From positions 64,001 to 128,000 of the forward strand of contig SCQK01000013.1 in the NCBI GenBank assembly GCA_004321885.1: a DNA stretch of 64,000 nucleotides, written 5' to 3'. This document shows, piece after piece, positions 7,220-54,819 of this stretch. How positions within the stretch are numbered: the stretch's first letter is position 1; every line of letters begins with the position of its first letter. The position numbers were made by a program, and so were the translations under genes. Below the pieces are notes generated by a model, which was not told the DNA's origin, did not search any database, and saw only the letters and a list, made by a program, of their open reading frames with translations. This stretch comes from Patescibacteria group bacterium. GTDB lineage: Bacteria; Patescibacteriota; Patescibacteriia; Magasanikbacterales; GWA2-37-8.

Positions 7220-7582
7220 CTACTTTACCAAGCGATTTTTGCCCAACAAATTTAAAATTTTAACAATCTCTTTCTTTAATTTTGGTATATCGTTCTCAAC
7301 GATTTTCCAAACCAGATTAATATCAACTCCAAAATATTCGTGAATGAGGACGTCCCGCGTACCGGCAATTTTTTTCCATTCTACCTGAGGATGCTTCTTT
7401 TTAAAACCAGCTGGCAAGCTTTTGCATGCTTCACCGATTATTTCCAAGCGGCGAATGATCGCGTCTTGAATTGTGGTTGAATCAAAAAAAAATTTTGGCG
7501 TTAATTTCGCCGCATTTTTTTCTATTTCTTCAATACTGGTTAAAATATATTCAAGAAAAAATTCAGGCTGTCTTTTTGCCAT
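7220..7582 (-). CDS. hepT: HepT-like (DUF86) nucleotidyltransferase substrate-binding toxin
   Basis: Rx4HxY motif in RDVLIHEY; size and 20-nt overlap with the upstream MntA-like gene are typical of HepT/MntA pairs. Confidence 0.7.
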   Translation of the reverse strand: MAKRQPEFFLEYILTSIEEIEKNAAKLTPKFFFDSTTIQDAIIRRLEIIGEACKSLPAGFKKKHPQVEWKKIAGTRDVLIHEYFGVDINLVWKIVENDIPKLKKEIVKILNLLGKNRLVK

Positions 7583-7859
7583 AAATTACCTTTTGCCCGC
7601 TCAAAATCGTCTTTCGCAATAACGGGTTGATGCCGCCGTATGAAAGCACGTCTACTCGCAAACCGAGTTTGTCTTCCAGCTCTAATTTTAAACCAACCAA
7701 ATCTAATAATGATTTATTTTTTTGTAATTTTACAAGGAGATCCAAGTCGCTTTTTTTGGTCTGTTCGCCTCGGGCGAAAGACCCAAAAATCGCGGCCTTT
7801 GTCACCCCGTTTTTTTTAAGAATCGGAAAAATTTTTTTGTTTAACGTTTTTAAGGTCAT
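7563..7859 (-). CDS. mntA: MntA-like minimal nucleotidyltransferase antitoxin
   Basis: GSFARGEQTKKSDLDLLV = GSx9-13DxD nucleotidyltransferase motif; ATG at 7857-7859. Confidence 0.7.
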   Translation of the reverse strand: MTLKTLNKKIFPILKKNGVTKAAIFGSFARGEQTKKSDLDLLVKLQKNKSLLDLVGLKLELEDKLGLRVDVLSYGGINPLLRKTILSGQKVIYGKKTA

Positions 7860-7941
7860 AGTTGAAATTATTACCAATTAGACACCAACCCATTAGGAAA
7901 GCTAAATCCATTATTATTCTAACCCTTTTTTGCTTTTTTGT

Positions 7942-9000
7942 CTATTTTTTCTTCAACGTCGTTATCGGCCTACTTTGAGTAATGTATACTGTACCGCTTT
8001 CCATGGCCCATTCAATATCACAAGGGAAACCATAGTGTTGCTCAATTTTCTTGCACACCTTGGCCACTTCAATAATTTCTTTGCCGGTCAGCTTCTGCTT
8101 ACCCCCCTCTTTCTCACTCAACTCAATCCATTTGTTGGAGTCTCTCCCCTTTATAAGGGGAGAGTTAGTGAGGGGTAATTTCGCTTTCACCAACTTCTTC
8201 GTCTGTACTCCAACATTTATATCTACAATACTCATTTCGCTTTTGGAAACAATATAACTGTCGGGTGTAATCTGGCCGCTCACAATCGCTTCGCCCAATC
8301 CAAACCCGGCCTCAATAATCATCTGGTCGGGGTCTTCAGTAACCGGGTGCACAGTAAAGGCGATGCCCGAAATTTCCGACTGCACCATTTTCTGCACCAC
8401 TACCGCGACCGAAACATAATGGTCAATCAGTTTTTTTTCGTGACGATAAAAAATCGCGCGGGGGGTGAAAAGCGAAGACCAGCATTGCTTAACTTTTTCA
8501 ACAACGTTAACGCGCGTGGTGTTCAAATAGGTTTCCAGCTCCCCGGCCCAACTGGCCACGTCGCTGTCCTCGGCCGTAGCGCTGCTTCTCACCGCCACCA
8601 GGTTGTCATCCTGAACTTGTTTCAGGATCCCCGTTCGCCGTCTGTCATTCAGACCCCGCTTAGCGGGGGAGGAATCCCTCCCGCCCAACTCATCAAACGC
8701 CCCCAATATCTCATTCTCCAAATCTTTCGGCATGGGCGTGTCGTGTATCACATCGCGCAAAACATTACTCGCCTTGTCCACGCTGTTGGTGTCTTCGGGA
8801 TCCACGTCAGCCAATCGCGCCTCAATCTCTTCTTTCAATTTCGTTTCCTCAATAAATCTGTCAAACGCGCTCGCCAATACCACAAAACCCGGCGGCACAC
8901 GCAGTTTCGCTTTAGTCATCTCGCCAAGCGAAGCGCCCTTCCCGCCCGCGCTGGCCACATCTTTCTTGGAAATATCCTTAAAAAATTTTATGTGAGGCAT
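7942..9000 (-). CDS. Stand-alone PEP synthase / pyruvate phosphate dikinase N-terminal nucleotide-binding (PPDK_N, ATP-grasp) domain protein; carries three in-frame palindromic inserts
   Basis: VASAGGKGASLGEM, RSSATAEDSDVASWAGELETYLN, AVVVQKMVQSEISGIAFTVHPVT are PPDK_N hallmarks. No phosphohistidine or PEP-binding domain follows. Inserts [32 protein letters not shown] (elements at 8605-8630 and 8644-8680) and NSPLIKGRDSN (8143-8175). Confidence 0.8.
   Translation of the reverse strand: MPHIKFFKDISKKDVASAGGKGASLGEMTKAKLRVPPGFVVLASAFDRFIEETKLKEEIEARLADVDPEDTNSVDKASNVLRDVIHDTPMPKDLENEILGAFDELGGRDSSPAKRGLNDRRRTGILKQVQDDNLVAVRSSATAEDSDVASWAGELETYLNTTRVNVVEKVKQCWSSLFTPRAIFYRHEKKLIDHYVSVAVVVQKMVQSEISGIAFTVHPVTEDPDQMIIEAGFGLGEAIVSGQITPDSYIVSKSEMSIVDINVGVQTKKLVKAKLPLTNSPLIKGRDSNKWIELSEKEGGKQKLTGKEIIEVAKVCKKIEQHYGFPCDIEWAMESGTVYITQSRPITTLKKK
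8143..8175. repeat. Palindromic element, family D (CTCTCCCCTTTATAAGGGGAGAGTTAGTGAGGGG), in frame in the PPDK_N gene
   Basis: Reverse-complement copy at 22373-22405 in the PEP-synthase-like gene, where it encodes SPLYKGRVSEG. Confidence 0.7.
8605..8630. repeat. Palindromic element, family B (GTCATCCTGAACTTGTTTCAGGATCC), in frame in the PPDK_N gene
   Basis: Hairpin ATCCTGAA-CTTGT-TTCAGGAT; further copies at 30589, 31039, 44822, 54761 and inverted variants at 54820 and 55176. Confidence 0.7.
8644..8680. repeat. Palindromic element, family A variant (GTCATTCAGACCCCGCTTAGCGGGGGAGGAATCCCTC), in frame in the PPDK_N gene
   Basis: Similar copy at 43602-43640 in dnaX. Confidence 0.65.
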
Positions 9001-9036
9001 ATTTCAAAAGCAGTCGCTTTGGGCGACTGCCACGAA

Positions 9037-9453
9037 CTATTTAATATATTCACCGATGATCTTCATAAACTTTTTTATATCTCCACTTTCCGCTTTTAGC
9101 TCGGTCAAAAATCGTTTCATGTCAATGTCTTCGTACTTGTGCACTATCCTGTTGCGCAAACCGACTATCGGAGCCAGTTTTAGAGCAAACGCCATGGGCA
9201 AAATTTTATTCTGGCCAAGCGTGATAAATGTGCTTTGATAATCTTCGGGCGCCTGCAAATTTTTCTCGGCGATAATATGCGTGTTGATATCTACCATACA
9301 GTCCACAATGAGCTGAAACAAGCGCTCAATCGCGTGCAATTTCGTCTCATCCTGAATTAAATCAAAAACATCGTCTTCTAAAAGCGCGTCCAACTCTTTC
9401 TGATACCCGCCGATGTCGGTGAGTTTGTTGTAAATAAGCGTTTTGTTGGTCAT
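9037..9453 (-). CDS. hepT: HepT-like (DUF86) toxin, second pair
   Basis: Rx4HxY motif in RNRIVHKY; immediately downstream of a MntA-like gene. ATG at 9451-9453. Confidence 0.65.
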   Translation of the reverse strand: MTNKTLIYNKLTDIGGYQKELDALLEDDVFDLIQDETKLHAIERLFQLIVDCMVDINTHIIAEKNLQAPEDYQSTFITLGQNKILPMAFALKLAPIVGLRNRIVHKYEDIDMKRFLTELKAESGDIKKFMKIIGEYIK

Positions 9454-9462
9454 ACACACAAT

Positions 9463-9864
9463 TTAAGCCAAAAATTTTTGAAGTTGTTTATGCCTTAATT
9501 CATAAAGCGGTTTCGCCTCAACATATCTCTTAAACGCGTACATGCGAAATTTGGCAAACTCGCCGACTTTATCCTCGTATAGAGGAACTCCGTCTCGCCC
9601 TATTTGCAGCATAAGTAACGGCGACGCTCCGCGCGCGTTCACCACTTCCACGTCGCCGCGGCCAAATATATGGCAAAAATTTTCCCGCAACCCGGCTTCT
9701 TCATAATAAGAAATTGGCCCTTTTGTTTTGACGGCAATATCAATGTCGCTGTATTTATGCGTTTTTCCGCGCGCGGCCGAACCAAATAATACGACGAAAT
9801 CAAGACCAGCTTGTTTAGCCGCCTTTTTTATCGCTGTCTTTGTTGTTGAATTTATGACTTTCAT
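9463..9864 (-). CDS. mntA: MntA-like nucleotidyltransferase antitoxin, second pair
   Basis: GSAARGKTHKYSDIDIAV nucleotidyltransferase motif. Confidence 0.7.
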   Translation of the reverse strand: MKVINSTTKTAIKKAAKQAGLDFVVLFGSAARGKTHKYSDIDIAVKTKGPISYYEEAGLRENFCHIFGRGDVEVVNARGASPLLMLQIGRDGVPLYEDKVGEFAKFRMYAFKRYVEAKPLYELRHKQLQKFLA

Positions 9865-9908
9865 GATAAAAGTATAGCATTTTTGCAGTATTTTGCAAAT
9901 TTTTGTCT

Positions 9909-10229
9909 TTAATCAATTTTTCTCACAATTCCCTTCTCCGCGTCCACCTCCACCATATCGCCATTTTTAATCTTCCACAAAATTTCTTCCGAAAGACCGA
10001 CAATCGCCGGTTTGTTATTTTCGCGCGCCACAATAGCCGCGTGAGAAGTTACCCCGCCATGCACTGCCAAAATCGCCTTCACTTTTTTAGCCAGCGCCGC
10101 GTTTGGTTTGACTTGATTCAATAACACAATATTCTCTTCCGTGCAATGAGCAAATTGGTCAGTATGATTAATAATACAAACCAGCCCGCTCGCCTTGCCG
10201 GGACAAGCAGAAATTCCTTTGAATTGCAT
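9909..10229 (-). CDS. Stand-alone PEP-utilizing enzyme mobile (phosphohistidine swivel) domain protein
   Basis: HGGVTSHAAIVARENNKPAIVGL ... GDMVEVDAEKGIVRKI; 106 aa, only the PF00391-type swivel domain. Confidence 0.8.
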   Translation of the reverse strand: MQFKGISACPGKASGLVCIINHTDQFAHCTEENIVLLNQVKPNAALAKKVKAILAVHGGVTSHAAIVARENNKPAIVGLSEEILWKIKNGDMVEVDAEKGIVRKID

Positions 10230-10275
10230 AAATTATAAATAATGGCTTTGTTCTGCCATTATTTTACTCTTACTC

Positions 10276-10304
10276 TTGACAAAAGTCAAAAAATGTGCTA
10301 TATT
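10276..10304 (+). promoter_or_regulatory. Sigma70-type promoter TTGACA-N17-TATATT upstream of the high-GC histidine-phosphatase gene
   Basis: ttgaca (10276-10281), 17-nt spacer, tatatt (10299-10304). About 190-nt AT-rich leader, then RBS AGGAGAG and ATG at 10493. Confidence 0.55.
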
Positions 10305-10492
10305 GTTTTGTTGTGGTTTATTGGAAAATTGCGCTTTATTGCGCTATTTTCCGGCTATAACGTGAGTGTGTTGTTTTTTGAAAATTTGAGGTTTCTTTGG
10401 CCAGAAGTTGAATGCGTAATGCGAATATCTTTTGTTCGTAATGCGCAGTCAACTTCCACGCCCCACCGATGGGGCACACCAAGGAGAGGAAG

Positions 10493-11140
10493 ATGAAGAC
10501 CACGGTGCTGTTCACGAGGCACGAGGACCACAAAGACCAGGTCCTCCTGCCGGACGCGGTCGAGAGAGCGCGCATGCGCGGTCTGCGCCTGCGTGAGAAG
10601 GACTACAAGATCGACCGGGTCAAGGGCTCGCCCCTGCCCCGCGCCGATGCCACCGCCACCGAGATGATGACCGGCTACGGCCAGACCACGGACATCGAGC
10701 GCGAGGCGCGCCTCGGCGACTTCAAATCCGATCCAAGGACGCCGAAGGAGGCGGTGAAGGAGCTCAAGGCGAACGCGGTGGCCAAGCACGGGGATGACTC
10801 CGACTCCAACTTGGCCAAGGAGCTCATCAACACCCCCGCCCTGCACGACCTCCTCTTCGCCCGCGCGAAGGAAGGCGCCGAGGCCCTGCTGGAGATGGCC
10901 GCCGCCAACCCGGGCAAGACCATCCTGGCCGTGAGCCACGGCGTGGCCCGCATGGAGATCGTCCTGCGCTACCTGCGGGGCGTCCGCGACACCGCGCTCC
11001 TGGACATCGTCCCGGAGCTCATCGACCGCGGCGAGGTCATCAAGCTGACCTTCGAGGTCTCGGAAGAGTGGGACGACCTCGCCGAGACGCACCCGGCGCG
11101 GGCCGAGTTCGTCTCGGCCGAGCCCCTCCCGCTCCTCTAA
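10493..11140 (+). CDS. Histidine phosphatase superfamily (phosphoglycerate-mutase-like) protein encoded in a high-GC islet
   Basis: LFTRHEDH (RHG-type motif) near the N-terminus and ILAVSHGVARMEIVL (second catalytic His). RBS ccAAGGAGAGgaagATG. Local GC about 65% against about 40% background; the minus-strand 290-aa ORF is an antisense artefact. Confidence 0.65.
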   Translation: MKTTVLFTRHEDHKDQVLLPDAVERARMRGLRLREKDYKIDRVKGSPLPRADATATEMMTGYGQTTDIEREARLGDFKSDPRTPKEAVKELKANAVAKHGDDSDSNLAKELINTPALHDLLFARAKEGAEALLEMAAANPGKTILAVSHGVARMEIVLRYLRGVRDTALLDIVPELIDRGEVIKLTFEVSEEWDDLAETHPARAEFVSAEPLPLL

Positions 11141-11262
11141 CCCCCCATCTCGCCCGCGTTCCGCGGGCAACTCCAAACACAACTCACTGACACGGCGGTA
11201 CGCATCGCGCGACCGCCCAACTCTCAATGCTTTTCAACGAAAAACATTGAGCGTTACAAAAA

Positions 11263-11293
11263 ATCCTTCGCGTTTACGAAGGATTTTTTGTTT
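11263..11293 (+). terminator. Rho-independent terminator after the high-GC gene: ATCCTTCGCGTTTACGAAGGAT plus T-run
   Basis: Perfect stem TCCTTCG/CGAAGGA followed by TTTTTTGTTTCT. Confidence 0.7.
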
Positions 11294-11319
11294 CTCAATT
11301 TTAATACCAGCGCGCTATT

Positions 11320-12828
11320 TCAAATTCTCCTCACCACCCCTTTATACCCATCCACCTCCAACCAATCCCCATCTTTCACCACCTCGCGCACAAACCTGGT
11401 TTGTATTACTCCCGGAATTTTGGCTTCCCGCGCAAGCGTGGCCGGGTGCGTCGTAATACCATGCCCGCCATCGCAAACCAAACCTGCCGCTTTCATAATA
11501 GCTGTGGAGAAACTGGGTACCACTTGAATACTGACGATAATATCTCCCTTCTGCACTTTATCGCATTCATCGGGATGCAAAATTACACGCGCTGGCCCCT
11601 TGGCGACTCCGGGCGAAACCGGCATACCGGTAAACTCTTTAGCGTTCTTATCTACTTTACAGAAAAGATTAAACAATCTTTCGGCCTGACTTCTCTCAAC
11701 TATCTTCATTGGCTGTCCGCGCCGACAATACCACAACATCAGTTCTATCCTTTCGTTAATATCAAAAGATAATTCTTTTCCTTTGATCAAAGCCGTTCTT
11801 ATCTCTTCTATTTTTAAGTGCCTGACCTGATTCAGACTCAAATAGAATCTGCGGCCAATCTCTTTCAAAACGCTATCAAAATAATACAAAGATTCGGAAA
11901 CGTAGCGCTTGCGCAATTCTTTCAAGTAAGCCACATGGCGCATGGAATTGAAAGAATCTTGTTCTTGCTTGCTGAAGTTCAATCTGGCCAAATATCTCTT
12001 TCTTTCGCTTTCATTTTTAGCCAAGTTACCGACCAATTTCTCATATTCCTTCCTCACATTGAGTATGAGATAGCCGGTCAAACGTTGAACTATCGATCTA
12101 AAATCCAAAACGGAGTCTTCGTAATCACGCGTTACCCAAAAATAATTTCTTTCATGCTTCCTTATAAGATTACTAAGTTTAGAATCTTTTTTAATGGCGT
12201 CTATATCTTTGGTTGTGACCAGAGAAACCCAATGTTTATCGGCTAAAATCCTTAACGCCAATTCAAACAACGCCTTCAATTCAACAGTCGCCACCATGGC
12301 GCTGGGTTCGCGCGTTAAAATGTCCAAAACTACCGCGGCCTTCCTTTTGTCCGCCACTTTGCCTTCCACCATACGTAGCAGGTCGGCGATATAATGGTCT
12401 TCCGTAATCCAAATCCATCCGTACCGAGCGTACACCTCTTTGTATTTTTTTTCATAATCAGCGAAAAATTCGTACAATGTCTGATTGCTTATTCTTTCTA
12501 AATTAGAATTGCCTGCTTTCTTGGCAAAAGCCACTAAACGCGCACCGTAGATATGCTGTTCTTTAATGAACTTGCCGACCAATTTTGAATCATAATGAAT
12601 TTTATCGGACATGTCGCGAGCAACCTCTTCGTAACCCTTCCTACCAATAAACATGTAGTGTACGTTATGCGTGCAAAAATAAAGTACCTCTCCGAGGGCA
12701 AAGCCGACGGCACTTTTCATCTCATTGCAGACAGCCTCCATTGAAAAATAATTAGGAAACGGACTGACGCGTTGGCGTTGAGACTTAAATACCCAGTGGT
12801 CGATATCCGTTGAAAATTTAACTGGCAT
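11320..12828 (-). CDS. Paralog 1: unknown N-terminal domain (about 390 aa) fused to a C-terminal PEP-utilizing swivel domain (variant His loop)
   Basis: C-terminus MPVSPGVAKGPARVILHPDECDKVQKGDIIVSIQVVPSFSTAIMKAAGLVCDGGHGITTHPATLAREAKIPGVIQT...GDWLEVDGYKGVVRRI aligns with the other paralogs. N-terminus has no PPDK_N motifs. Confidence 0.7.
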   Translation of the reverse strand: MPVKFSTDIDHWVFKSQRQRVSPFPNYFSMEAVCNEMKSAVGFALGEVLYFCTHNVHYMFIGRKGYEEVARDMSDKIHYDSKLVGKFIKEQHIYGARLVAFAKKAGNSNLERISNQTLYEFFADYEKKYKEVYARYGWIWITEDHYIADLLRMVEGKVADKRKAAVVLDILTREPSAMVATVELKALFELALRILADKHWVSLVTTKDIDAIKKDSKLSNLIRKHERNYFWVTRDYEDSVLDFRSIVQRLTGYLILNVRKEYEKLVGNLAKNESERKRYLARLNFSKQEQDSFNSMRHVAYLKELRKRYVSESLYYFDSVLKEIGRRFYLSLNQVRHLKIEEIRTALIKGKELSFDINERIELMLWYCRRGQPMKIVERSQAERLFNLFCKVDKNAKEFTGMPVSPGVAKGPARVILHPDECDKVQKGDIIVSIQVVPSFSTAIMKAAGLVCDGGHGITTHPATLAREAKIPGVIQTRFVREVVKDGDWLEVDGYKGVVRRI

Positions 12829-12858
12829 AATTAACTGATAAAAATTTATTCAATTCTT

Positions 12859-14082
12859 TTAAATTTTTCTCACAATCCCTTTCTCCGCGTCCACCTCCAC
12901 CATATCGCCGTCTTTTAAAACCTTAGTCGCGATTTTCGTGCCGATAATACAAGGTATACCTAACTCACGGCTGACGATGGCAGCATGCGCGGTTAACCCT
13001 CCCTCGTCGGTCACGATAGCGGCCGCCTTTTTGACCGCCGTTATCAACGACGGCGTGGTCATGGATGAAACTAAAATATCACCCTTCTGCATCTTGACCT
13101 GATCTTCCCGCGTGATAACAATTTTGACCTTGCCGCGCACCTTTCCCTTGGATGCCACGAAGCCAATAATTTTATCCACCACCGCTGTTTTGTCTTCTTC
13201 AAAATAAAGCTTAAAATAATTCTGCGCCTTTTCGCCGCTTAAAATTTTTAATTTTCTCCGGCTGATCAGCAATATATAAAATTGTTGGCGGCGTTTCATT
13301 TCGCTTTCGGGCATTTTCTTGCCACCCAAATAATCGCGCAAGCTGACCGGATCGTACCAATCCAATTCAGCCAATTCTTTTTCGTTGTTGATGACCTTTC
13401 GCAAATGATCTAATAGCTGATCGTAAAGATAAGACGACACTCTTTCCCCCATTTCGTAAAAGTAAGTGAACCATGATAAAATTTCCGCAAGCTCTTTTTC
13501 TTTGGCGGTTAATTTTAGCCGTCGTGCAAGATCCTCTCTTTTTCTAATCAATCGCGGACTAGAACAATGCAATTGGTTTAATAGCCCGACAACCGCTTTC
13601 GGCACTGATAAAGTTGATAAGACATCGTCCAGCTCGCGCGCCGATACTTTCGCCGCCAGTAATTTTTTCAGCCGCTGTGCAACAGACTGCTCACCCCAGT
13701 AGCTATAGACAATAGCGCCACGCCCATAAGCGTGATATTTCATGAACAAACTGATGTAACTCCTCAAATCTTTGCGGGTCAAATTTTTATTCTCGTACTT
13801 TCTGCCCCAGTTATAACCTTGGATTAGCAACTTAACTATAATGTCACCCAAACGAGAAATATTTTTCCCTTTAAATTCTCGCAGAATAATTTTCTGCTGT
13901 CTTTTTTTGTCCGCGGGGTCAAAGTATAACGAGGTAACTCTGCCGCGGCCGACAATCGGACTTCTGGCTATTTTCGCCCGCCCAAATTTACCAATGCTCT
14001 GCGCATAAGCAATGGTGCGAAATCCGCGATCAAGCAAAGTATTTTCACGTGTTAATTGTTTGACGTATTTGACTTTGGACAT
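12859..14082 (-). CDS. Paralog 2: unknown N-terminal domain (about 300 aa) plus C-terminal PEP-utilizing swivel domain
   Basis: ...GKVKIVITREDQVKMQKGDILVSSMTTPSLITAVKKAAAIVTDEGGLTAHAAIVSRELGIPCIIGTKIATKVLKDGDMVEVDAEKGIVRKI. Confidence 0.75.
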   Translation of the reverse strand: MSKVKYVKQLTRENTLLDRGFRTIAYAQSIGKFGRAKIARSPIVGRGRVTSLYFDPADKKRQQKIILREFKGKNISRLGDIIVKLLIQGYNWGRKYENKNLTRKDLRSYISLFMKYHAYGRGAIVYSYWGEQSVAQRLKKLLAAKVSARELDDVLSTLSVPKAVVGLLNQLHCSSPRLIRKREDLARRLKLTAKEKELAEILSWFTYFYEMGERVSSYLYDQLLDHLRKVINNEKELAELDWYDPVSLRDYLGGKKMPESEMKRRQQFYILLISRRKLKILSGEKAQNYFKLYFEEDKTAVVDKIIGFVASKGKVRGKVKIVITREDQVKMQKGDILVSSMTTPSLITAVKKAAAIVTDEGGLTAHAAIVSRELGIPCIIGTKIATKVLKDGDMVEVDAEKGIVRKI

Positions 14083-14239
14083 AAATTAAAGCTTCCCCAT
14101 AACCCCCTTTAATATAGAACCCCGAAATTTGACAAATAACGTGCACATGTTATACTGATTATGGAATTGATACCGCTTCAAATAGTCCCGTTTATCGGGG
14201 CGTCCCGCAAGGGTAAGGAGCGGTATTTTTGTTTTACTC

Positions 14240-14869
14240 CTATTTCGGCCATCTTTGCACCCAAATCTCTTTGTCTGCCACGTATTTATAATAATTCGTC
14301 CAATCCTTTTTATTTTGAACTTTTCTGCTGACAACGCCGGTGATGTAATCAGCTACCTGCAGCAAATTATTTGATTTTGAACGCTGTTGTTTTAATTTTT
14401 TTATAACTTTCTTCCCGTTCGTATTTAACCGAACGCGCAAATATTTGGCAAGACGGCTGCGAAAATCCGGCGAACCTGACTTATCAAGTATTACTGTGGC
14501 GTTATTCAAATGCGGAAGCGCGTTGTTAAAAACCATCTGGCAGGCGTATTTGTAAAACGATTCTTTGGTGATAAAACCTGGCCCCCACAATTTATTTGGG
14601 TCTTTGTCTATCACGACTGCGAAGTATATAAAGCGATACGGCTGGATGGCCGATAAAAATCTTTCTTTTATCTTATCCGAATTAAAAGAAAAATGAAATT
14701 CAAAATCGGACGGCAAATCAAGCTCTTTTCGCAATAAATTAATCCGTTGGTCGCAAGATAGGGCGTCTTCATTGTCATCAAAAATAACCAAAGAAATTAT
14801 AAAATATCTGCTGGAACCGGATTCTGTTTTACGGCCGGTATCGCCGGCTTCATCTATAAAGACGAGCAT
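14240..14869 (-). CDS. DUF3800 family protein
   Basis: MLVFIDEAGDTG... start and LLQVADYITGVV motif are characteristic of DUF3800; it sits inside the paralog array. Confidence 0.6.
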   Translation of the reverse strand: MLVFIDEAGDTGRKTESGSSRYFIISLVIFDDNEDALSCDQRINLLRKELDLPSDFEFHFSFNSDKIKERFLSAIQPYRFIYFAVVIDKDPNKLWGPGFITKESFYKYACQMVFNNALPHLNNATVILDKSGSPDFRSRLAKYLRVRLNTNGKKVIKKLKQQRSKSNNLLQVADYITGVVSRKVQNKKDWTNYYKYVADKEIWVQRWPK

Positions 14870-14879
14870 AACTGTTAAT

Positions 14880-16361
14880 TCAAATTTTCTTCACAATCCC
14901 CTTTGTCGCATCCACTTCCACCATGTCGCCGTCTCTGAAAACCTTAGTGGCGATTTTCGTGCCAATCACGCAGGGAATACCGAGTTCGCGCGAGACGATA
15001 GCCGCATGGCAGACAATGCCGCCCATATCAGTAACTATCGCCGACGCCTTTTTCATGGCCGCCACGATTTCCGGTATGGTCATTTCCGAAACCAACACAT
15101 TTCCACTTACCATTTTTTTCATATCCTCTATGGTATTTACAATCGTTACTTTCCCTTTGGCCGCGCCCGGAACCGCGGTTTGCCCCCGCAGTTCTTGAAC
15201 TGATAAATCCACTTCTTCCTCACGAGCCATATTCATTTTTGACATTACGTATCTCGCTTCTTCGCCAACAATAAACTTGGATCCATTGGCGTCCACATAT
15301 AGTAAACTATATTTCCAACGTTCATTTAATTCATCCGCGTCGCACTGCCCGCTTCTAATCGCAGAAGGAACTTCTTGTGGCAAAAAATATCGCGCTTGAC
15401 GAATTGAAATAAGCAATCTTTTTGCTACTTCCCGCAGTATTTTATCAAGCGCATAAAATCCTAAAAATTGGTGCTCTTTGCTCCATGCCTTTTGATAAAC
15501 AAGGTCTTTGGTAACGCGAAATAAATGCTTGTGTTTTTCATCAATTTTTAAATTATCAAACCAGGCGTTTTGTTTTTTTTCAGCTTCAAAAAACTGATTT
15601 TTCTGACGCAAAATTTCTTGCTCAATATCGGTCCCAGCTTCTATAATCTCCTGAATATGCTTTACCACATCCTTCTCTGTCCAAGTCGGCCCTTCACAGG
15701 CAAAGGGCAAAAAACAATACTTCCGCGCATGCGCCGCAATTTTTTCCTCCCCAACGGATAATTGAATTTTGCCTTCCACAACTTCCTTCGCCAGCTCATA
15801 AAGTTCCAAATGTTCCTGTGTACCCAAAGCCGGCTTTGTCAGCGTGAGTAAATCAGCCAAAACAAGAACGGCATCTATATCAGGATTAAACTTTTTTAAA
15901 TAGTTCAATAAATATATTCCTAATTGTTCAAACGGAATTTCCAAAAGCCAACTCGGAACACGATATAAGTGTAATTCCGTCTGTAACGGCAACAGTTGTT
16001 CGTAAATTCGCGCGAGTTCTTCGTTGGATAACTTTGATAAATCACTCTCAATAATTTTCCAGGCATAATTTCTAAGCTGCGGTAAAATTTTATCTGATTT
16101 TACATGCATATCATCAATGAGCCGGGGATTTTCCACAATTGCTTCTAAAGTTTTTTTACCGGCCACTATCCATTCATTGCGAATATAGAATAACTTTGTC
16201 GCGCCGTTTTCATACAAAGGAAGGCTGTGTGCCACATCGGCAAGCCCCAGCTTGCTCAATTCGCTTGTCATGGCGCGAAAAGGCGGCTCCAATGTAATGG
16301 GAGGATACTGATACAACTTCTCAATCATTATCCATTCTTTTCTTAACAATTCTTCATTCAT
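14880..16361 (-). CDS. Paralog 3: unknown N-terminal domain (about 390 aa) plus C-terminal PEP-utilizing swivel domain
   Basis: ...GAAKGKVTIVNTIEDMKKMVSGNVLVSEMTIPEIVAAMKKASAIVTDMGGIVCHAAIVSRELGIPCVIGTKIATKVFRDGDMVEVDATKGIVKKI; 4-nt overlap with paralog 4. Confidence 0.75.
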   Translation of the reverse strand: MNEELLRKEWIMIEKLYQYPPITLEPPFRAMTSELSKLGLADVAHSLPLYENGATKLFYIRNEWIVAGKKTLEAIVENPRLIDDMHVKSDKILPQLRNYAWKIIESDLSKLSNEELARIYEQLLPLQTELHLYRVPSWLLEIPFEQLGIYLLNYLKKFNPDIDAVLVLADLLTLTKPALGTQEHLELYELAKEVVEGKIQLSVGEEKIAAHARKYCFLPFACEGPTWTEKDVVKHIQEIIEAGTDIEQEILRQKNQFFEAEKKQNAWFDNLKIDEKHKHLFRVTKDLVYQKAWSKEHQFLGFYALDKILREVAKRLLISIRQARYFLPQEVPSAIRSGQCDADELNERWKYSLLYVDANGSKFIVGEEARYVMSKMNMAREEEVDLSVQELRGQTAVPGAAKGKVTIVNTIEDMKKMVSGNVLVSEMTIPEIVAAMKKASAIVTDMGGIVCHAAIVSRELGIPCVIGTKIATKVFRDGDMVEVDATKGIVKKI

Positions 16362-17836
16362 ATTTTTCTCACAACCCCACTTGTCGCGTCAACCTTCACC
16401 ATATCGCCGTCTTTGAGTACGGAAGTGATTTTTTTCACGCCCACCACGCAGGGAATTTTAAATTCGCGCGCCACAATGGCCGCATGGCAAGTGATGCCGC
16501 CGTCCTCCGTCACGATAGCCGAGGCGCGTTTCATAGCCGGCAACATCGCCGGATAAGTCGTGAGCGCCAACATAATATCTCCTTTTTCCACCTTATCCGC
16601 GTCTGTTAACGATAGAACAACTTTTACTTTGCCTGAAACAAAACCCGGATACGCGGTGGCGCCCTTAAATCCGTCTTCAACATTTAATTTTATTTCTTCA
16701 ATATCCAAGCCGGCTATAATCGCGTCGGCCTCTTTGCCGTAATAATACTTTGTTCCGCTTTCAGTCGCTTCAATCACGCAATGCTTAATTCTCTCATTTA
16801 TTAAATCAATGTCCAATTTGTCACGCAATAGAGCGTTTTCCATTTCGTCCGTCAAAAAATGATTCGCTTGTTTATGCGATATATTCAATCGCTTGGCAAT
16901 TTCTTTGGTGAGCATGTCCAAAACATAGTGCCCATGCCAAATACAATATTTTCTGAGATCCTTAAGCCAAATAATCTCGCGGGCGATGGCGAACAATCGC
17001 GCGAGCTGCGGGGGCAAGTTGATTTCGGAAATTACTTTATTTTGTTCCGCGATGAGTTTCTCGTAGCGTTCTTTTTCTTCTTTGAGCATTTGGTCCGGGT
17101 CAGTTACGCGAGGCAGGGCTTCCTTAACCTGCTCTTCATAATATTTCAAATCATAAGCCGGCCCGATATAGCCGTATGGCGTCCAGCGCCATTTTTGCCA
17201 ATGCTTTGTTATTAATTCTTTGTACTGGATTCCCGCTTTCGCGGGAATGACAACGGCCTTAAGCAACTCCAAAAAATCCAATTGCTCCAACTGGACAAAA
17301 TTCTGTTTAGCCGGAGTGGTAAGCAGAACAAAATATTCTATTGTTTTTACCGGATCATCTATGCCTAAACTTTTTAAATGTTCTCCTAATTTTTGCTTTA
17401 AATACTCCGAAAAAATCATGCCGTCGCTGTCCACAAACCAAGTGGTGGCGATTGATGGAAGATGACCTTGCTCGGTAAGCCATAAAAGCGTTTTGTAGTA
17501 ATCAAAAAGCTCGGCATTGTTTAGCGCGCCAAAATCTTTTCCCACCAAACTTTGAGCGTAATTAAAATAATCCCAATTTAATTTTTCGGTTCGCGCATGC
17601 AATTCCTCTGCCCACTGCGGCTCGGTAATAATTTTTTCCGCAATCCATTTCACCGTCGTTTCTATTACTTCAACCGGCACATACGCCGTATCCCTGTCGT
17701 TTCTATAATCTTGATACCAAACAGTAAATAATTGTTTGCCATTCTTTTTTGGAATATGCGCAAAAATCCCTTGGGGGTAATAGCCCAGCATGTTAAAATT
17801 CACGTCGCGGATATCAAAATTTATTCGCCATTTCAT
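16358..17836 (-). CDS. Paralog 4: unknown N-terminal domain (about 390 aa) plus C-terminal PEP-utilizing swivel domain
   Basis: ...ATAYPGFVSGKVKVVLSLTDADKVEKGDIMLALTTYPAMLPAMKRASAIVTEDGGITCHAAIVAREFKIPCVVGVKKITSVLKDGDMVKVDATSGVVRKI. Confidence 0.75.
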   Translation of the reverse strand: MKWRINFDIRDVNFNMLGYYPQGIFAHIPKKNGKQLFTVWYQDYRNDRDTAYVPVEVIETTVKWIAEKIITEPQWAEELHARTEKLNWDYFNYAQSLVGKDFGALNNAELFDYYKTLLWLTEQGHLPSIATTWFVDSDGMIFSEYLKQKLGEHLKSLGIDDPVKTIEYFVLLTTPAKQNFVQLEQLDFLELLKAVVIPAKAGIQYKELITKHWQKWRWTPYGYIGPAYDLKYYEEQVKEALPRVTDPDQMLKEEKERYEKLIAEQNKVISEINLPPQLARLFAIAREIIWLKDLRKYCIWHGHYVLDMLTKEIAKRLNISHKQANHFLTDEMENALLRDKLDIDLINERIKHCVIEATESGTKYYYGKEADAIIAGLDIEEIKLNVEDGFKGATAYPGFVSGKVKVVLSLTDADKVEKGDIMLALTTYPAMLPAMKRASAIVTEDGGITCHAAIVAREFKIPCVVGVKKITSVLKDGDMVKVDATSGVVRKI

Positions 17837-17838
17837 AT

Positions 17839-18882
17839 TTATCCGAAGTAGTTTTTCACCGCGAATTCAAATTGCTGGACAAATAATTCCTTAAAGTAGC
17901 GCAAACTATTTTGTTCGTAAAATAAAAGCAACGCCTTCTTGTATTCGGCGCTATCAACGCTTCTAAACGACAAAGGACACCAGTCATGCGCCAAGAGAAT
18001 CGCATTGCCCAAAATTCTGCCTGTTCTTTTATTTCCATCCACGAACGGCTGAATATATGAAATCATCGCCGCCGCGATTATGGCCTTGATTATCGGTTGC
18101 TCCTCTGTATTTACCGCGGAAATCATTTTTTCCATCGCTTCTTTTATTTGGAATTGGTTGTCTATCGGCTTATAATTTGTGCCGACAATACCCACTACAA
18201 TCTTCCTGTAATCATCCGTCACGCCCAAATCTTTTATCAACAAAGAATGCAGGGCGCGTATCAGCGCGGCGGTCGGTTTCTTGAATTTATTTTTATTTTT
18301 CAAAACAAAATCAAGCGCGTATTTATGATTCAATATCATCGTCGCCTCCGCTTTAGTGTGCCCTTTCGCCTCTTTCATTTCCTTTAACAATACTTCCGTA
18401 TCCAATAACGAATAAGTATTACCTTCAAGTTCAGATGATTTCCAGCTCAATTCAATCAAAAGTCGCTCTAATTCTTTTTGAGCGACATCGACCGCCATTT
18501 TGTCTGTTTTTTGTTGATACGCCTTGTTGCGCTTTTCTAAATCTTTTAATTCTTCCTTGTTAAACAAGCCGGATAAATGGTCAAAAATTTCCCAGTCAAA
18601 TCTGTATTTTATTTTTCTTTCATCCACCGGAACCGCAAAATAATCCGCGGCATTAACATAACGCAGAAGCGGAGTTTTAATTTTTGACGAATATGTGACA
18701 CTGCGAGCCTTGCCTCTCTTTTCTATCTGTCCGATCGAGAGTAAAATTTCCAATTCACGCAGGATTGTCGGTTTTGACAATCTGTCAAATTTACCCGCTA
18801 ATCCTTTAATAAGTTCGGCCGCTGTTACCTGTTCATTAGCCTGTACAAATTCCAAAATCGCTTTTTGACGTTTTGTAAGCAT
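17839..18882 (-). CDS. Fic/DOC family protein with N-terminal winged-HTH; the core motif is degenerate (QPFVDGNKRTGR instead of HPFxDGNGRxxR)
   Basis: MLTKRQKAILEFVQANEQVTAAELIKGL... (wHTH); ...AAAMISYIQPFVDGNKRTGRILGNAILLAH carries Gln where the catalytic His belongs and Lys in place of the second Gly. Confidence 0.7.
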   Translation of the reverse strand: MLTKRQKAILEFVQANEQVTAAELIKGLAGKFDRLSKPTILRELEILLSIGQIEKRGKARSVTYSSKIKTPLLRYVNAADYFAVPVDERKIKYRFDWEIFDHLSGLFNKEELKDLEKRNKAYQQKTDKMAVDVAQKELERLLIELSWKSSELEGNTYSLLDTEVLLKEMKEAKGHTKAEATMILNHKYALDFVLKNKNKFKKPTAALIRALHSLLIKDLGVTDDYRKIVVGIVGTNYKPIDNQFQIKEAMEKMISAVNTEEQPIIKAIIAAAMISYIQPFVDGNKRTGRILGNAILLAHDWCPLSFRSVDSAEYKKALLLFYEQNSLRYFKELFVQQFEFAVKNYFG

Positions 18883-19004: not shown

Positions 19005-20186
19005 TCAAGCAATCACTCCCCCGCCCAAACATTCACCTTTAAGATAAAATACCGCGAACTGACCCGGGGTGACGGCGCGTTGGGGGTGAGTGAAAGTAAC
19101 TAAAGGGAGGGAAACAGTGCATCTCTGCAAAGGTTGACGGTGACGCAGGCGCACCTGGCATTTTAGCGGGAAATTGGGTGTGTTTCCACTTATCCAATTT
19201 ACGTCTTTGACCCTTGCTTCCATACTGTACAGCATATCGCTTTTCTCGTCGCCGACAATCAGTTCGTTCTTTTTTATATTCTTACCGACAACAAAGAGAG
19301 GCAACGCGCTGGATTCCCCCGTACTTAGTCGGGGGAATGACAAACTGATACGTTGGCCGATGGTGTAAAACGCCAGGCCATCGTGCTGGCCCACGACTTT
19401 ACCCCTCTCTCGCCACCGCCGCGAGGCGGGGCCCCGCCGTGGCGGTGGCTCTCCCCTTGTAAAGGGGAGAGAGAGCACTATGTTCCCGGGTTTGAATTTT
19501 ATCTTTTTCATCAAAAATTCTTTCATCGGCACTTCGCCGATGAAACAAATGCCCATGCTTTCTTCTTTTTCCGCCGTGGGCAAGCCGAATTTTTTTGCCA
19601 GGGCGCGCACCTGTGGTTTGGCATACTCACCGATGGGAAACAAAACGTGGCGCAGTTGTGCTTGAGATAATTGATTCAAAAAATATGTTTGGTCTTTATT
19701 GAGATCTTTTGACTGCAAGAGGTGCAGAACCCCACCCCCCTTTCGTTCCCCCTTTATTAAGGGAGGAAGAAACGCGTAGTGTCCAGTCGCTAATTTATCA
19801 AACCCTAACGCACGGGCTTTATCCAGCCAGGCGCCAAACTTGATGAATTTATTGCACAAAACATCCGGATTGGGCGTGCGGCCGGCCTTGTACTCGCTAT
19901 ACATGTAATCCAAAACATCGCGCTTGTATTTGCGCGTAAAATCCAGCTTCAAAAGTTTAATGCCCAGTTTGGCGGCCACGCGCAAGGCGTCGCGATAATC
20001 GCCGGTCCAACAGCGCGATCCCACCCCCCCTTCGCCCCCCCCTCTGGCATGAGGGGATATTTTCTCATCATAGTTCACCATGAACGCGCCGCTTACGTTA
20101 TATCCTTGCTTAACCAAAAGAGCGGCGGCAACGGACGAATCCACGCCGCCGGACATGGCGACTAAAATTTTTTGCTTTTTTTTCAT
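19005..20186 (-). CDS. mnmA: tRNA-specific 2-thiouridylase MnmA, carrying four in-frame palindromic-element inserts
   Basis: ILVAMSGGVDSSVAAALLVKQGYNV (PP-loop), GRTPNPDVLCN, NKDQTYFL, GLPTAEKEESMGICFIG. Non-homologous inserts ISPHARGGGEGGVGSR, PPLIKGERKGGGV, LPFTRGEPPPRRGPASRRWRERGKVVG and SLSFPRLSTGESSA map onto elements at 20022-20057, 19736-19776, 19395-19475 and 19311-19341. Confidence 0.85.
   Translation of the reverse strand: MKKKQKILVAMSGGVDSSVAAALLVKQGYNVSGAFMVNYDEKISPHARGGGEGGVGSRCWTGDYRDALRVAAKLGIKLLKLDFTRKYKRDVLDYMYSEYKAGRTPNPDVLCNKFIKFGAWLDKARALGFDKLATGHYAFLPPLIKGERKGGGVLHLLQSKDLNKDQTYFLNQLSQAQLRHVLFPIGEYAKPQVRALAKKFGLPTAEKEESMGICFIGEVPMKEFLMKKIKFKPGNIVLSLPFTRGEPPPRRGPASRRWRERGKVVGQHDGLAFYTIGQRISLSFPRLSTGESSALPLFVVGKNIKKNELIVGDEKSDMLYSMEARVKDVNWISGNTPNFPLKCQVRLRHRQPLQRCTVSLPLVTFTHPQRAVTPGQFAVFYLKGECLGGGVIA
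19311..19341. repeat. Palindromic element, family A (reverse orientation), in frame in mnmA
   Basis: ggattcccccgtacttagtcgggggaatgac is the reverse complement of the alaS copy. Confidence 0.7.
19395..19475. repeat. Compound palindromic element, family D type (…CTCTCCCCTTGTAAAGGGGAGAGAG), in frame in mnmA
   Basis: cccctctctcgccaccgccgcgaggcggggccccgccgtggcggtggctctccccttgtaaaggggagagagag; nested inverted repeats. Confidence 0.6.
19736..19776. repeat. Palindromic element, family D type (CCCCCTTTATTAAGGGAGG), in frame in mnmA
   Basis: ccacccccctttcgttccccctttattaagggaggaag. Confidence 0.55.
20022..20057. repeat. Poly-C/poly-G palindromic element in frame in mnmA
   Basis: cccaccccccccttcgccccccccctctggcatgagggg. 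Confidence 0.5.
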
Positions 20187-20253: not shown

Positions 20254-20565
20254 TTACCTATCGCGCCTGGCCCGCAGACATTCTCTGCAGTAAACCGGCT
20301 TGTCGCCGGTGGGCTGGAAGGGCAACTCGGTGATCTTGCCTCCGCACTGGGCGCAGGTCAAGTCCACCTGGTACATCTGGCGCGGAGCGCCAAACGAGCG
20401 TCCGCCGCCGCTCGGGCGGGTCTGGCGGTACGCGCGATTGCATTCATTGCAATACACGGGTCTGTCGCCGGACGGCTGGAAGGGCAGCTGTGAAATATGG
20501 GTCCCGCATTTGCCGCAGGAAAGGTCCACATCGTACATCTGCCTAGTGCTGTTGTCAAAAGCCAT
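20254..20565 (-). CDS. Small tandem zinc-ribbon protein (two CxxC-x17-CxxC repeats) in a high-GC islet
   Basis: QMYDVDLSCGKCGTHISQLPFQPSGDRPVYCNECNR and QMYQVDLTCAQCGGKITELPFQPTGDKPVYCRECLR form an internal duplication. Local GC far above background. Confidence 0.55.
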   Translation of the reverse strand: MAFDNSTRQMYDVDLSCGKCGTHISQLPFQPSGDRPVYCNECNRAYRQTRPSGGGRSFGAPRQMYQVDLTCAQCGGKITELPFQPTGDKPVYCRECLRARRDR

Positions 20566-20984: not shown

Positions 20985-21245
20985 ATGGAGGTAATTTTAT
21001 ATTATATTTACAGTAAAAAACTGAATAAATACTACTTAGGAAAAACCAATGATTTGGAGCGACGTTTTATAGAGCATAATAACGGTGAAGAAATTTTTAC
21101 CAGAACTGGTATTCCATGGAAATTAGTTGGATTTATTAAAGCCAGCGCGAAGATAATTAGTAAATTAGAGTATAAACTAAAAAAAGCAAAAAATCCAAAA
21201 TACGTTTATTGGTATTTCAATCAACACGGAACTGTATTGGAATAA
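20985..21245 (+). CDS. Small GIY-YIG nuclease (COG2827/YhbQ-Slx1-like) nested in the tRNA-Asp locus
   Basis: MEVILYYIYSKKLNKYYLGKTNDLERRFIEHNNGEE... matches GIY-x10-YLG-x-T-NDLERR-x3-H-N of the GIY-YIG (URI) domain; 86 aa. Confidence 0.7.
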   Translation: MEVILYYIYSKKLNKYYLGKTNDLERRFIEHNNGEEIFTRTGIPWKLVGFIKASAKIISKLEYKLKKAKNPKYVYWYFNQHGTVLE

Positions 21246-29990: not shown

Positions 29991-31385
29991 ATGCTACAAC
30001 TTTTCAATACCCTGATCAGAAAAACAGAAGAATTCGTCCCGCTCAAAAAAGGCCGCGCAGGCCTCTACACCTGCGGCCCCACTGTCTACAACTACGCGCA
30101 CATCGGCAATTTGCGCGCTTATGTTTTTGAAGATGTGCTCAAGCGAGTTTTGCTCTACGACAAATACAAGGTGAAGCACGTGATGAATATCACCGACGTT
30201 GGGCATTTGACCGATGACGGCGACGCGGGCGAAGACAAGATGGAAAAAGGGGCGCGACGCGAGGGCAAGACCGCCTGGGAAATCGCGAAATTTTACGAAA
30301 ATGCTTTTAAGAACGACTTGAAAAATTTGAACATTTTGCCGGCCGACAAATATCCGCGCGCCACCGAGCACATCAAAAACCAAATCGCTTTGATAAAAAA
30401 ATTAGAGGCGAAAGGATTTACTTACCGCACGAGCGATGGCGTGTATTTTGACACTTCAAAGTTGTCGGATTACGGCAAGCTGGCGCTTTTGGGCAAACAG
30501 GAATTGATGGCCGGAGCGCGGGTGGAGATGGGAGAAAAAAAACACGCGACTGATTTCGCGCTGTGGAAGTTGAGCGCCTCGCAGGGCGGTCATCCTGAAC
30601 TTGTTTCAGGATCCCCAAAACGCCAAATGGAATGGCCTTCGCCCTGGGGCATCGGTTTTCCTGGCTGGCATATAGAGTGCTCGGCCATGTCAGTAAAATA
30701 TTTGGGCCAGCCGTTTGATATCCACTGCGGCGGAGTTGACCATATTCCGGTGCATCACACCAACGAAATAGCGCAAAGCGAAGCGGCCGGCGGCAAACCC
30801 CTGGCGAATTATTGGTTGCACGGAGAGTTTTTGATAACCGGTACGGAAAAAATGGCCAAATCGGAAAACAACTTTTTGACTTTGGCGAAATTGAAAGAAA
30901 AAGGCATCTCTCCCCTGGCCTATCGTTATTTCCTGTTGCAGACGCATTACCGCAAACAACTGAACTTTTCCTGGGAGGCGCTCTCCGCCGCGCAAAAGGG
31001 CTTGGAGCATTTGTATGACTTAATCCCTGTGTCCAATAGTCATCCTGAACTTGTTTCAGGATCTCCGCTCGCTCAACGATTCCAAGAAGCCATCAACAAC
31101 GACCTGGACACTCCGGCCGCTCTGGCTCTGGTCTGGGATGCCCTGCGCGCCAAAACAATTTCCAAAAAACAACTTTTGGATTTTGACAAGGTTCTCGGTC
31201 TTGGTCTGAACAAAGTGAAAAAAGAAAAAATCAAAATCCCGGCCGAAGTTCAGAAGCTGATCAAGGAGCGCGAAACCGCCCGCACGGCCAAGAACTGGGC
31301 CGAATCCGACCGTTTGCGCCGTGAAATAGAGGCCGCCGGTTTTACGGTTGAAGACACGCCGGATGGGCAGAAGGTGAGGAAATAA
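29991..31385 (+). CDS. cysS: Cysteinyl-tRNA synthetase with two in-frame family B palindromic inserts
   Basis: [21 protein letters not shown] (HIGH), KMAKSENN (KMSKS), anticodon-binding C-terminus; duplicated insert HPELVSGSP at 30589-30614 and 31039-31063. Confidence 0.9.
30589..30614. repeat. Palindromic element, family B, in frame in cysS
   Basis: gtcatcctgaacttgtttcaggatcc. Confidence 0.7.
31039..31063. repeat. Palindromic element, family B, in frame in cysS (second copy)
   Basis: gtcatcctgaacttgtttcaggatc. Confidence 0.7.
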
Positions 31386-34083: not shown

Positions 34084-34117
34084 CCCCTCCTTAATCCTCC
34101 CCTTAATAAGGGGGGGG
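34084..34117. repeat. Palindromic element, family D (copy of 2735-2767)
   Basis: cccctccttaatcctccccttaataagggggggg. Confidence 0.6.
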
Positions 34118-44831: not shown

Positions 44832-44846
44832 ATTTATTTCAGGATC
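44822..44846. repeat. Palindromic element, family B variant (GTCATCCTGAATTTATTTCAGGATC)
   Basis: Read directly; provides the peptidase stop codon. Confidence 0.65.
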
Positions 44847-54760: not shown

Positions 54761-54786
54761 GTCATCCTGAACTTGTTTCAGGATCC
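54761..54786. repeat. Palindromic element, family B (GTCATCCTGAACTTGTTTCAGGATCC)
   Basis: Read directly; 30 nt from the inverted-orientation copy at 54820. Confidence 0.7.
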
Positions 54787-54819
54787 CCACTGTCCAATTC
54801 GCCGACTCGCTCGATCGGA

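Follow-up and report, generated by a model that had tools for sequence, protein, structure and literature searches.

Two-component homologues of rifampin phosphotransferase (RPH) have been proven biochemically for PpsAB, CreHI, and HpeHI, which form strict 1:1 pairs in the aromatic catabolism of Actinobacteria and Proteobacteria (PMC12167813). In HpeHI, the ATP-grasp domain is provided by HpeI and a rifampin (RIF)-binding-like domain together with the swivel domain by HpeH, with a histidine mutant that is dead (PMC12167813), and the Hpe operon also includes HpeD, a NagD-like phosphatase of the HAD superfamily (PMC9618137). Here we describe a block of mainly minus-strand genes at positions 7942-18882 of a 64,000-nucleotide stretch of contig SCQK01000013.1 (referred to throughout as the window) from a Patescibacteria group bacterium. 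This block probably encodes a split small-molecule dikinase of the RPH family with a hub-and-spoke layout, in which one ATP-grasp subunit would serve several modules that each join a substrate-binding domain to a C-terminal swivel domain. As in HpeHI, CreHI, and PpsAB, the ATP-grasp gene is separate from the genes for the RPH-type substrate-binding and C-terminal swivel domains in the same locus, and the swivel mechanism is likely to be shared. In contrast to those pairs, 4-5 modules accompany a single ATP-grasp gene here and as many as 12 do so elsewhere. A split dikinase had been proposed in a preliminary description of this DNA, and our analysis supports that idea, although the splitting itself is not new and was preceded by PpsAB, CreHI, and HpeHI (PMC12167813). 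What is new is the pairing of one ATP-grasp with many modules, across the candidate phyla radiation (CPR) and with recurrent phosphatases.

The coordinates in the preliminary description all agree with the open reading frame (ORF) listing, and the swivel domain it placed at the C terminus of five minus-strand genes is matched by PF00391 in every one, one of the five being the domain alone. None of these five proteins matches PPDK_N (PF01326) or PEP-utilizers_C (PF02896) in a Pfam scan, and the PPDK_N domain is instead carried by a separate gene that encodes no other domain and is the sole stand-alone copy within the 64-kb window. The W_492 and W_493 genes share 4 nt (16358-16361), an overlap also reported before, and proteins of the window are identical to the database entries EPN28_03325 and EPN28_03310. 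The core genes are as follows.

7942-9000, minus strand: stand-alone ATP-grasp (PPDK_N) subunit, 352 aa; PF01326 E=3e-94 over residues 16-351
9909-10229, minus strand: swivel-only protein, 106 aa; PF00391 E=2e-16 across the whole protein
11320-12828, minus strand: module W_502, 502 aa; C-terminal PF00391 E=3e-12; histidine motif GITTHPA
12859-14082, minus strand: module W_407, 407 aa, short type (trimmed substrate-binding domain, then swivel); PF00391 E=1e-25
14880-16361, minus strand: module W_493, 493 aa, predicted RPH-type substrate-binding domain plus swivel; PF00391 E=1e-22
16358-17836, minus strand: module W_492, 492 aa ("MKWRINF" subfamily); PF00391 E=2e-26; catalytic His-451

The swivel domains of the four long paralogues are 38-67% identical to one another and 34-45% identical to the 106-aa protein, and the N-terminal regions of the long paralogues share 21-27% identity. 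These regions had been described as differing from one another apart from a weak aromatic motif. The motif stands, as a conserved block (KWxWTPYGYxGPxY) of the W_492 subfamily, but the regions prove to be mutually homologous along their full length, with phmmer E-values of 1e-7 to 1e-31 among three long ones. The NCBIfam RPH/PRK06241 models extend 100-200 residues upstream of the module swivel, as does the Listeria RPH sequence, and the predicted structures of the N-domains are confident and match the fold of the RIF-binding domain, not that of ATP-grasp. The substrate-binding fold that in the RPH superfamily is set between ATP-grasp and swivel is hence recognizable in the modules. For the short-type N-domains, hhalign linked only the last ~55 residues to the long type (P=91%), and structure comparison then settled the relation. 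The N-terminal regions are therefore best modelled as RPH-type substrate-binding domains, neither novel domains nor the degenerate PPDK_N domains that the preliminary description had considered.

We also compared the residues expected to act in catalysis. An invariant block of the W_492 family profile, L-K292-D293-F-R295-K296-Y, aligns with Y-R666-E667-Y-P-K670-Y of RPH, where the second phosphotransfer depends critically on Arg-666 and Glu-667, and the Arg-Glu...Lys pattern is kept even in distant clades (Stogios et al., PMC4844700). Within the window the block reads K-D-x-R-K in W_492 and K-E-L-R-K in W_502, which are conservative variants. The catalytic swivel histidine is retained in 115 of the 115 swivel ORFs surveyed, and it is also kept by the 106-aa swivel-only protein (GGVTSHAAIV), which may be either a free phospho-carrier or the remnant of a module.

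On PF01326 the ATP-grasp protein reaches 316 bits, and its nucleotide-site motifs, GGKGASLGEM and VAVRSSATAED, are aligned and conserved. It shares 47-72% identity with the one stand-alone PPDK_N protein in each of 20 other loci. The stand-alone ATP-grasp proteins of related loci are 47-72% identical to one another, compared with 34% to the N-domain of the PEP (phosphoenolpyruvate) synthase encoded in the window, which identifies them as a dedicated orthologous group.

The gene of this subunit in the window also carries two in-frame insertions of repeat elements. One is a palindromic element, CTCTCCCCTT-NNN-AAGGGGAGAG, with 6 matches in the window compared with 0.17 expected by chance, and it lies in-frame within the ATP-grasp gene (..SPLIKGR..), MnmA, and the PEP synthase gene (..SPLYKGRVSEG..), reminiscent of the Rickettsia palindromic elements. 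The other is a 28-nt hairpin repeat with the core ATCCTGAA-ACAAG-TTCAGGAT, within a 25-aa in-frame insertion that is present in the window copy alone among 12 aligned ATP-grasp orthologues. Their copies are as follows.

8146-8160, 19453-19467, 22388-22402, 34099-34113, and 55925-55939, with 54371-54385 at one mismatch: palindromic element
8605-8632, 30589-30616, 54761-54788, 31039-31072, and 44820-44846: second hairpin repeat

Compared with the described two-component systems, the modules are shorter (~490-510 aa, versus ~600-610 aa for the HpeHI/CreHI/PpsAB counterparts), and on the PpsA-type models PRK08296.1-5 they reach 64-100 bits, in the swivel region alone, against a cut-off of 578, which places them outside that family. 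Relatives of ~600 aa were considered as PpsA/HpeH-type proteins and rejected, as the PRK08296 cut-offs were not reached. The patescibacterial loci also differ from Hpe, Cre, and Pps in their surroundings, as their recurrent neighbors include neither carboxylase nor catabolic genes, and His_Phos_1 and Fic-like genes are linked instead. As judged from the sequences, the window system would act like PpsAB, HpeHI, and CreHI, yet lies outside their subfamily.

RPH itself is one polypeptide of ~865 aa (PDB 5hv1/5fbs; PMC4844700), whereas here the ATP-grasp gene is separate and common to several modules. The modules share 16-22% identity with RPH, and the RPH equivalog models (NF041857/NF000283; cut-off 999) give scores of 62-75 bits for the modules and 263 bits for the ATP-grasp protein. 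Nothing suggests rifamycin as a module substrate. NCBIfam models of the prodigiosin ligases PigC, RedH, and HapC likewise align to the ATP-grasp protein and the module C termini, with scores far under their cut-offs. These ligases are full-length, RPH-like single chains of pigment biosynthetic clusters, in which the phosphoryl transfer of the family can serve substrate activation and not inactivation. Nearest in sequence to the window proteins is PEP synthase, which, like pyruvate phosphate dikinase (PPDK), has homologous ATP-grasp and swivel domains. The chemistry is likely to be that of a dikinase. PEP synthase and PPDK differ in that their PEP/pyruvate-binding TIM-barrel, PF02896, is not matched in any module and in that the module swivel is C-terminal rather than central. 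On the PEP synthase models (TIGR01418/NF005057), the separate gene at 21413-24379 alone gives a full-length match.

To place the block among its relatives, 185,579 species-representative genomes were scanned with the W_492-type N-domain, which gave 31 loci, and independent anchors from the W_407 subfamily added further arrays, for a pooled survey of 37 distinct loci (numbered here with the prefix L). The named loci of the W_492-type scan all belong to the CPR, namely to Magasanikbacteria, Parcubacteria, Doudnabacteria, and Kerfeldbacteria, with further loci in Falkowbacteria, Taylorbacteria, and Saccharibacteria, and all 37 are apparently from Patescibacteria. The number of modules per locus ranges from 1 to a maximum of 12, with at least two in 29 of the 37 and at least four in 17. 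A separate PPDK_N gene occurs exactly once in 19 loci and more than once in none, and in 2 others the domain is fused to one or more modules. No PPDK_N was found in the remaining 16, in 12 of which the available sequence ends <1.5 kb beyond the array. The linkage to a separate PPDK_N gene, which the preliminary description had proposed to check in other genomes, is thus a recurrent feature, with tandem module arrays adjoining one small PPDK_N gene on other contigs. Similar swivel-only ORFs occur in L032 (110 aa) and L012 (206 aa).

The partnership between ATP-grasp and modules is further supported, in the manner of Rosetta-stone proteins, by natural fusions predicted from continuous reading frames. 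In L034, a 900-aa ORF (continuous in code 11) joins PPDK_N to a module, and in L041 (P0128) a 1217-aa ORF without internal stops in code 11 places two complete modules behind PPDK_N, both with a histidine of their own. Of the features that define the RPH superfamily, the ATP-grasp domain is present on a separate polypeptide, or fused in L034 and L041, and the C-terminal swivel histidine is present in the modules. A further fusion, P0193 (721 aa, continuous in code 11, and present in 5 cluster members), combines a module with a HAD phosphatase. On more than 20 contigs, three modules are united in one 1506-aa ORF (L042:8001-12521), with PPDK_N, His_Phos_1, and HAD genes nearby. This last locus may come either from the CPR or from DPANN archaea; it encodes an archaeal-type CMP kinase (TIGR02173, above cut-off) together with a bacterial-type PgsA and contains no tRNA genes.

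The preliminary description had spoken of a diversifying family in tandem. The tree and clustering of the N-domains point to ancient conserved subfamilies and not to a rapid or recent expansion within one lineage, as each window paralogue is closer to orthologues elsewhere than to its paralogues at home. W_492, for example, groups with L1_490, L4_509a, and L5_513, and W_502 with L4_501. All of the window paralogues are intact ORFs, with orthologues in other genomes at 40-60% identity; those of W_502 were found in L004, L007, L018, and L028 (E 1e-90 to 1e-113) and those of W_493 in L009 (E 3e-82) and L018 (E 8e-78), and the W_492 subfamily is the most widespread of all. In a sample of 32 loci, the 109 N-domains fall into 45 clusters at E<=1e-40, and the subfamilies are nearly always single-copy per locus. 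The modules appear to be a large, old, and unannotated branch of the RPH superfamily, of which each genome holds its own combination, because an exhaustive profile search with the N-domain gives 3,113 representatives at 50% identity (E<=1e-3; 414 at E<=1e-30), most of them ~500 aa long. The earlier proposal of one ATP-grasp for several swivel proteins hence stands on sequence, structure, and comparative genomics (linkage, fusions, and the retained histidine); a rapid diversification of the paralogues does not.

From the domain identities, folds, catalytic residues, gene linkage, one-to-many ratio, and fusions, we infer charging in trans, one substrate for each module, and a role for the phosphatases. 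The ATP-grasp protein would bind ATP and move its β-phosphate in trans to the swivel histidine of each module (W_492, W_493, W_407, W_502, and perhaps the 106-aa swivel-only protein). The swivel would then swing back to its own RPH-type N-domain and hand the phosphate to a module-specific acceptor, most likely the hydroxyl group of a small molecule. The linked phosphatases (His_Phos_1 here, HAD also or instead in many relatives) might dephosphorylate a downstream product, on the model of HpeD, the HAD enzyme of the HpeHI pathway, or return the phospho-histidine to its unphosphorylated state, and the HepT/MntA pairs and the DUF3800 gene would be later insertions. As a guess, the substrates could be metabolites or xenobiotics, derived from the host or the environment, that minimal epibionts trap, activate, or detoxify. 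Conceptually, the scheme resembles the phosphotransferase system (PTS), in which Enzyme I serves many Enzymes II through HPr. Here, however, the donor would be ATP via ATP-grasp and not PEP, there is no HPr, EIIA/B/C, or membrane component, and specificity would lie in the RPH-type helical domains.

Several observations weigh against this scheme. In sequence, both the module swivels and the ATP-grasp protein stand nearer to PEP synthase than to RPH or HpeI, which makes it conceivable that PEP synthase charges the modules or that PEP is used. The flanking genes of the loci contain no linked pathway enzymes that would indicate a substrate, and a kinase with linked phosphatases could resemble a futile cycle unless there is an intervening step. 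Two solo modules, in L035 and L038, have ~10 kb of free sequence on both sides and no PPDK_N. Finally, the second-site block reads K-A-W-S-K in W_493, and W_407 is without K-[DE]-x-x-K (it reads Y-E-M-G-E), so that not every module need be catalytic in the manner of RPH.

The remaining features of the block and its surroundings, among which Pfam matches bear out the Fic gene, the DUF3800 gene, and both HepT/MntA pairs of the preliminary description, are as follows.

7220-7877, minus strand: HepT/MntA pair 1 (PF01934 + PF18765), an interloper downstream of the ATP-grasp gene
9037-9864, minus strand: HepT/MntA pair 2 (PF01934 + PF18765), an interloper in the gap between the swivel-only and ATP-grasp genes
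10232-10304: divergent promoter-like region between the phosphatase and swivel-only genes, from consensus matches
10469-11140, plus strand: His_Phos_1 histidine-phosphatase, 223 aa, with an RHE catalytic motif; PF00300 E=7e-8
11256-11291: bidirectional intrinsic-terminator-like hairpin between the convergent W_502 and phosphatase genes
14240-14869, minus strand: DUF3800 gene, an interloper; PF12686 E=7e-14
17839-18882, minus strand: Fic-fold protein with an N-terminal winged helix; PF02661 E=3e-16, weak HTH matches
21413-24379, minus strand: complete PEP synthase, as described before; NF005057, 1160 bits

The plus-strand His_Phos_1 gene inside the block had been overlooked. A phosphatase of the same family occupies the same position in the opposite orientation in L005, L012, L033, L040, L004, and L039, being Pfam-significant in the window, L005, L012, and L033 and recognized by the family profile in the other three, and in L001 and L041 a gene with an RH motif takes its place. 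This antisense gene, set between array and PPDK_N, thus appears, by its sequence, to represent a recurrent and very divergent histidine-phosphatase family, with a weak match to SixA (TIGR00249, E=0.006). It is also unusually GC-rich. In the window its GC content is 0.677 and its GC3 0.946, against 0.39-0.49 for the neighbors, and in 7 of the 8 loci compared the phosphatase exceeds its own locus by 13-25 points, with enrichment in L041 as well, unlike the linked HAD genes, which show none. Two explanations for this richness were examined and rejected. Recent transfer from a high-GC host found no support, as the relatives comprise 19 small clusters alone, none indicating a high-GC donor, with a source name for two of them (Magasanikbacteria and a generic phosphatase label). 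Preservation of an overlapping antisense ORF fared no better, given that the antisense frames do not exceed those of codon-shuffled controls in length and are broken in L012, L033, and L039. The positions of the relatives are as follows.

L005:13031-13654, L012:15604-16260, L033:7790-8398, and L040:16876-17523: phosphatase relatives
L004:12031-12834, L001:15208-15927, and L041:7382-7855: further relatives

A HAD hydrolase of ~200 aa is also recurrent, with 11 loci in the clustering of flanking ORFs and 14 in the pooled survey. Upstream of the phosphatase gene lies the best σ70-like site of the region (10276-10304, plus strand; TTGACA-17-TATATT with TG, 11/12 consensus matches), and promoter-like consensus sites on the minus strand are found at 10289-10261 and 10259-10232. 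The hairpin at 11256-11291 consists of an A-run, a 15-bp stem, and a U-run, with a minimum free energy of -20.2 kcal/mol (z = -6.9 compared with shuffles).

The Fic-fold protein is encoded by the first gene of the array operon. It has a degenerate active-site motif, QPFVDGNKRTGR, in which the catalytic histidine is replaced by glutamine, and it is more likely to be a regulator than an AMPylase on these grounds. Orthologues directly upstream of arrays (L001:7827-8927, L012:8334-9377, and L032:4310-5395) share the motif, and 4 of 4 read QPF[EV]DGNKRT, with glutamine in place of the catalytic histidine, and carry the N-terminal winged helix. The array-linked Fic proteins hence seem to form a conserved subfamily that is probably non-AMPylating and possibly regulates the operon.

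Two further kinds of gene recur near the arrays, and both may reflect simple synteny. In 10 loci a VirD4/TrwB-like coupling ATPase (TrwB_AAD_bind) is encoded upstream of the array. In 7 loci a Carb_kinase (YjeF_C-like) gene is found near the array, for example at L004:2082-2879. An acylphosphatase gene directly follows the last array module of L040 (L040:20344-20616) and could point to acyl-phosphate chemistry in certain modules. Examples of the coupling ATPase are the following.

L001:5689-7755, L004:190-2079, and L039:19610-21233: VirD4/TrwB-like ATPase

Given that the swivels resemble those of PEP synthase, the modules might be charged by the full-length enzyme at 21413-24379 or by PEP in a PTS-like relay, the small PPDK_N protein being an unrelated or regulatory paralogue. 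The swivels carry the PEP-synthase-type signature GGxT(C/S)HAAIV(A/S)RE, their best sequence match in the PDB is the PEP synthase 8a8e (E=9e-26 and 2e-41), and the complete gene is 2.5 kb away. Among the surveyed loci, however, a PEP synthase is near the array in the window only, whereas 21 loci have a dedicated small PPDK_N, fused to one or more modules in two, and the stand-alone ATP-grasp proteins are the conserved orthologous group described above. The module swivels are also less similar to the swivel of the resident PEP synthase (25-37% identity) than to one another. We consider charging by PEP synthase or PEP quite unlikely. A little less unlikely is that the modules are phospho-histidine carriers in signaling or regulation, or kinases of proteins, glycans, or lipids, with helical N-domains that bind macromolecules and a SixA-like His_Phos_1 that resets them. 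The recurrent histidine-phosphatase neighbor with its weak SixA match, the existence of swivel-only proteins, the short-type modules without the RPH catalytic block, and the Fic-like winged helix-turn-helix protein that heads the operon in four loci could all be read in this way. Against such a role, the long modules retain both the second-site block and the entire substrate-binding fold of RPH, all characterized members of the fold family act on small molecules (PMC4844700, PMC12167813), and there are no recurrent partner proteins.

The preliminary description had also seen in the neighboring genes a hint of a defense-island setting. On such a reading the swivel proteins would be the effectors or sensors of a defense or toxin-antitoxin island. 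The window array is indeed interleaved with two HepT/MntA pairs, DUF3800, and Fic, and the interleaved genes match the candidate PADLOC models PDC-S09, PDC-M04A (DUF3800), and SoFic/PDC-S04. This hint is not borne out, as none of the other 36 loci has HepT/MntA or DUF3800 in its array, and PADLOC-DB 2.0 gives zero matches for the system's own proteins (ATP-grasp, modules, swivel-only, and phosphatase). The arrays moreover lie amid housekeeping genes with partial synteny (e.g. MnmA in the window and L001), and the Fic orthologues are without their catalytic histidine, making a defense island highly improbable. Slighter still is the chance that the paralogues are decaying RPH-like copies with degenerate PPDK_N N termini and no joint function. 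Although their N-terminal regions have no Pfam match and their mutual identity is low, the ORFs are intact with orthologues at the 40-60% identity given above, the confident models match the RIF-binding and not the ATP-grasp fold, and the catalytic histidine is invariant; sequences and models together effectively refute decay.

The split dikinase with shared ATP-grasp bears on how CPR genomes are read. These genes are routinely labeled "PEP synthase/pyruvate phosphate dikinase" or "PEP-utilizing enzyme," and such labels can mislead CPR metabolic reconstructions because the modules would not be central-carbon enzymes. We found no description of swivel-domain arrays in CPR/Patescibacteria in the literature searched, most subscription-journal papers lying outside its scope. 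The one-to-many layout, with fusions of ATP-grasp to two modules, would be a new organization of swivel-domain catalysis and a tractable system for how one ATP-grasp domain recognizes many swivel partners. That ultrasmall epibionts spend 6-20 kb on a family of substrate-specific kinases would imply important small-molecule chemistry at the host interface, and the modules could be a large natural library of potential regiospecific catalysts of small-molecule phosphorylation with a common ATP-charging partner. More tentatively, and with considerable doubt, CPR bacteria and maybe other ultrasmall symbionts might possess a general ATP-driven "phosphorylation hub," in which one ATP-grasp charges a set of interchangeable, substrate-specific modules that differs between genomes and can number a dozen or more. 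If so, the hub would resemble the PTS but run on ATP in the cytosol, with dedicated phosphatases, and would trap, activate, or neutralize the many small molecules from the host on which such metabolically minimal cells rely. It would occupy about 2% of a genome of ~1 Mb.

The resident PEP synthase has a peculiarity of its own, a C-terminal extension of ~190 aa past the full-length model (match to residues 2-796 of 988 aa) that includes a hydrophobic, transmembrane-like stretch, ..AAATKLLLIFGVVGLLSTLGGYA.. Two small genes lie between MnmA and the PEP synthase gene, one at 20254-20565 on the minus strand, whose small GC-rich (0.61) product has two zinc fingers of the treble-clef type (PF23477), and one at 20985-21245 on the plus strand, encoding a stand-alone GIY-YIG protein of 86 aa.

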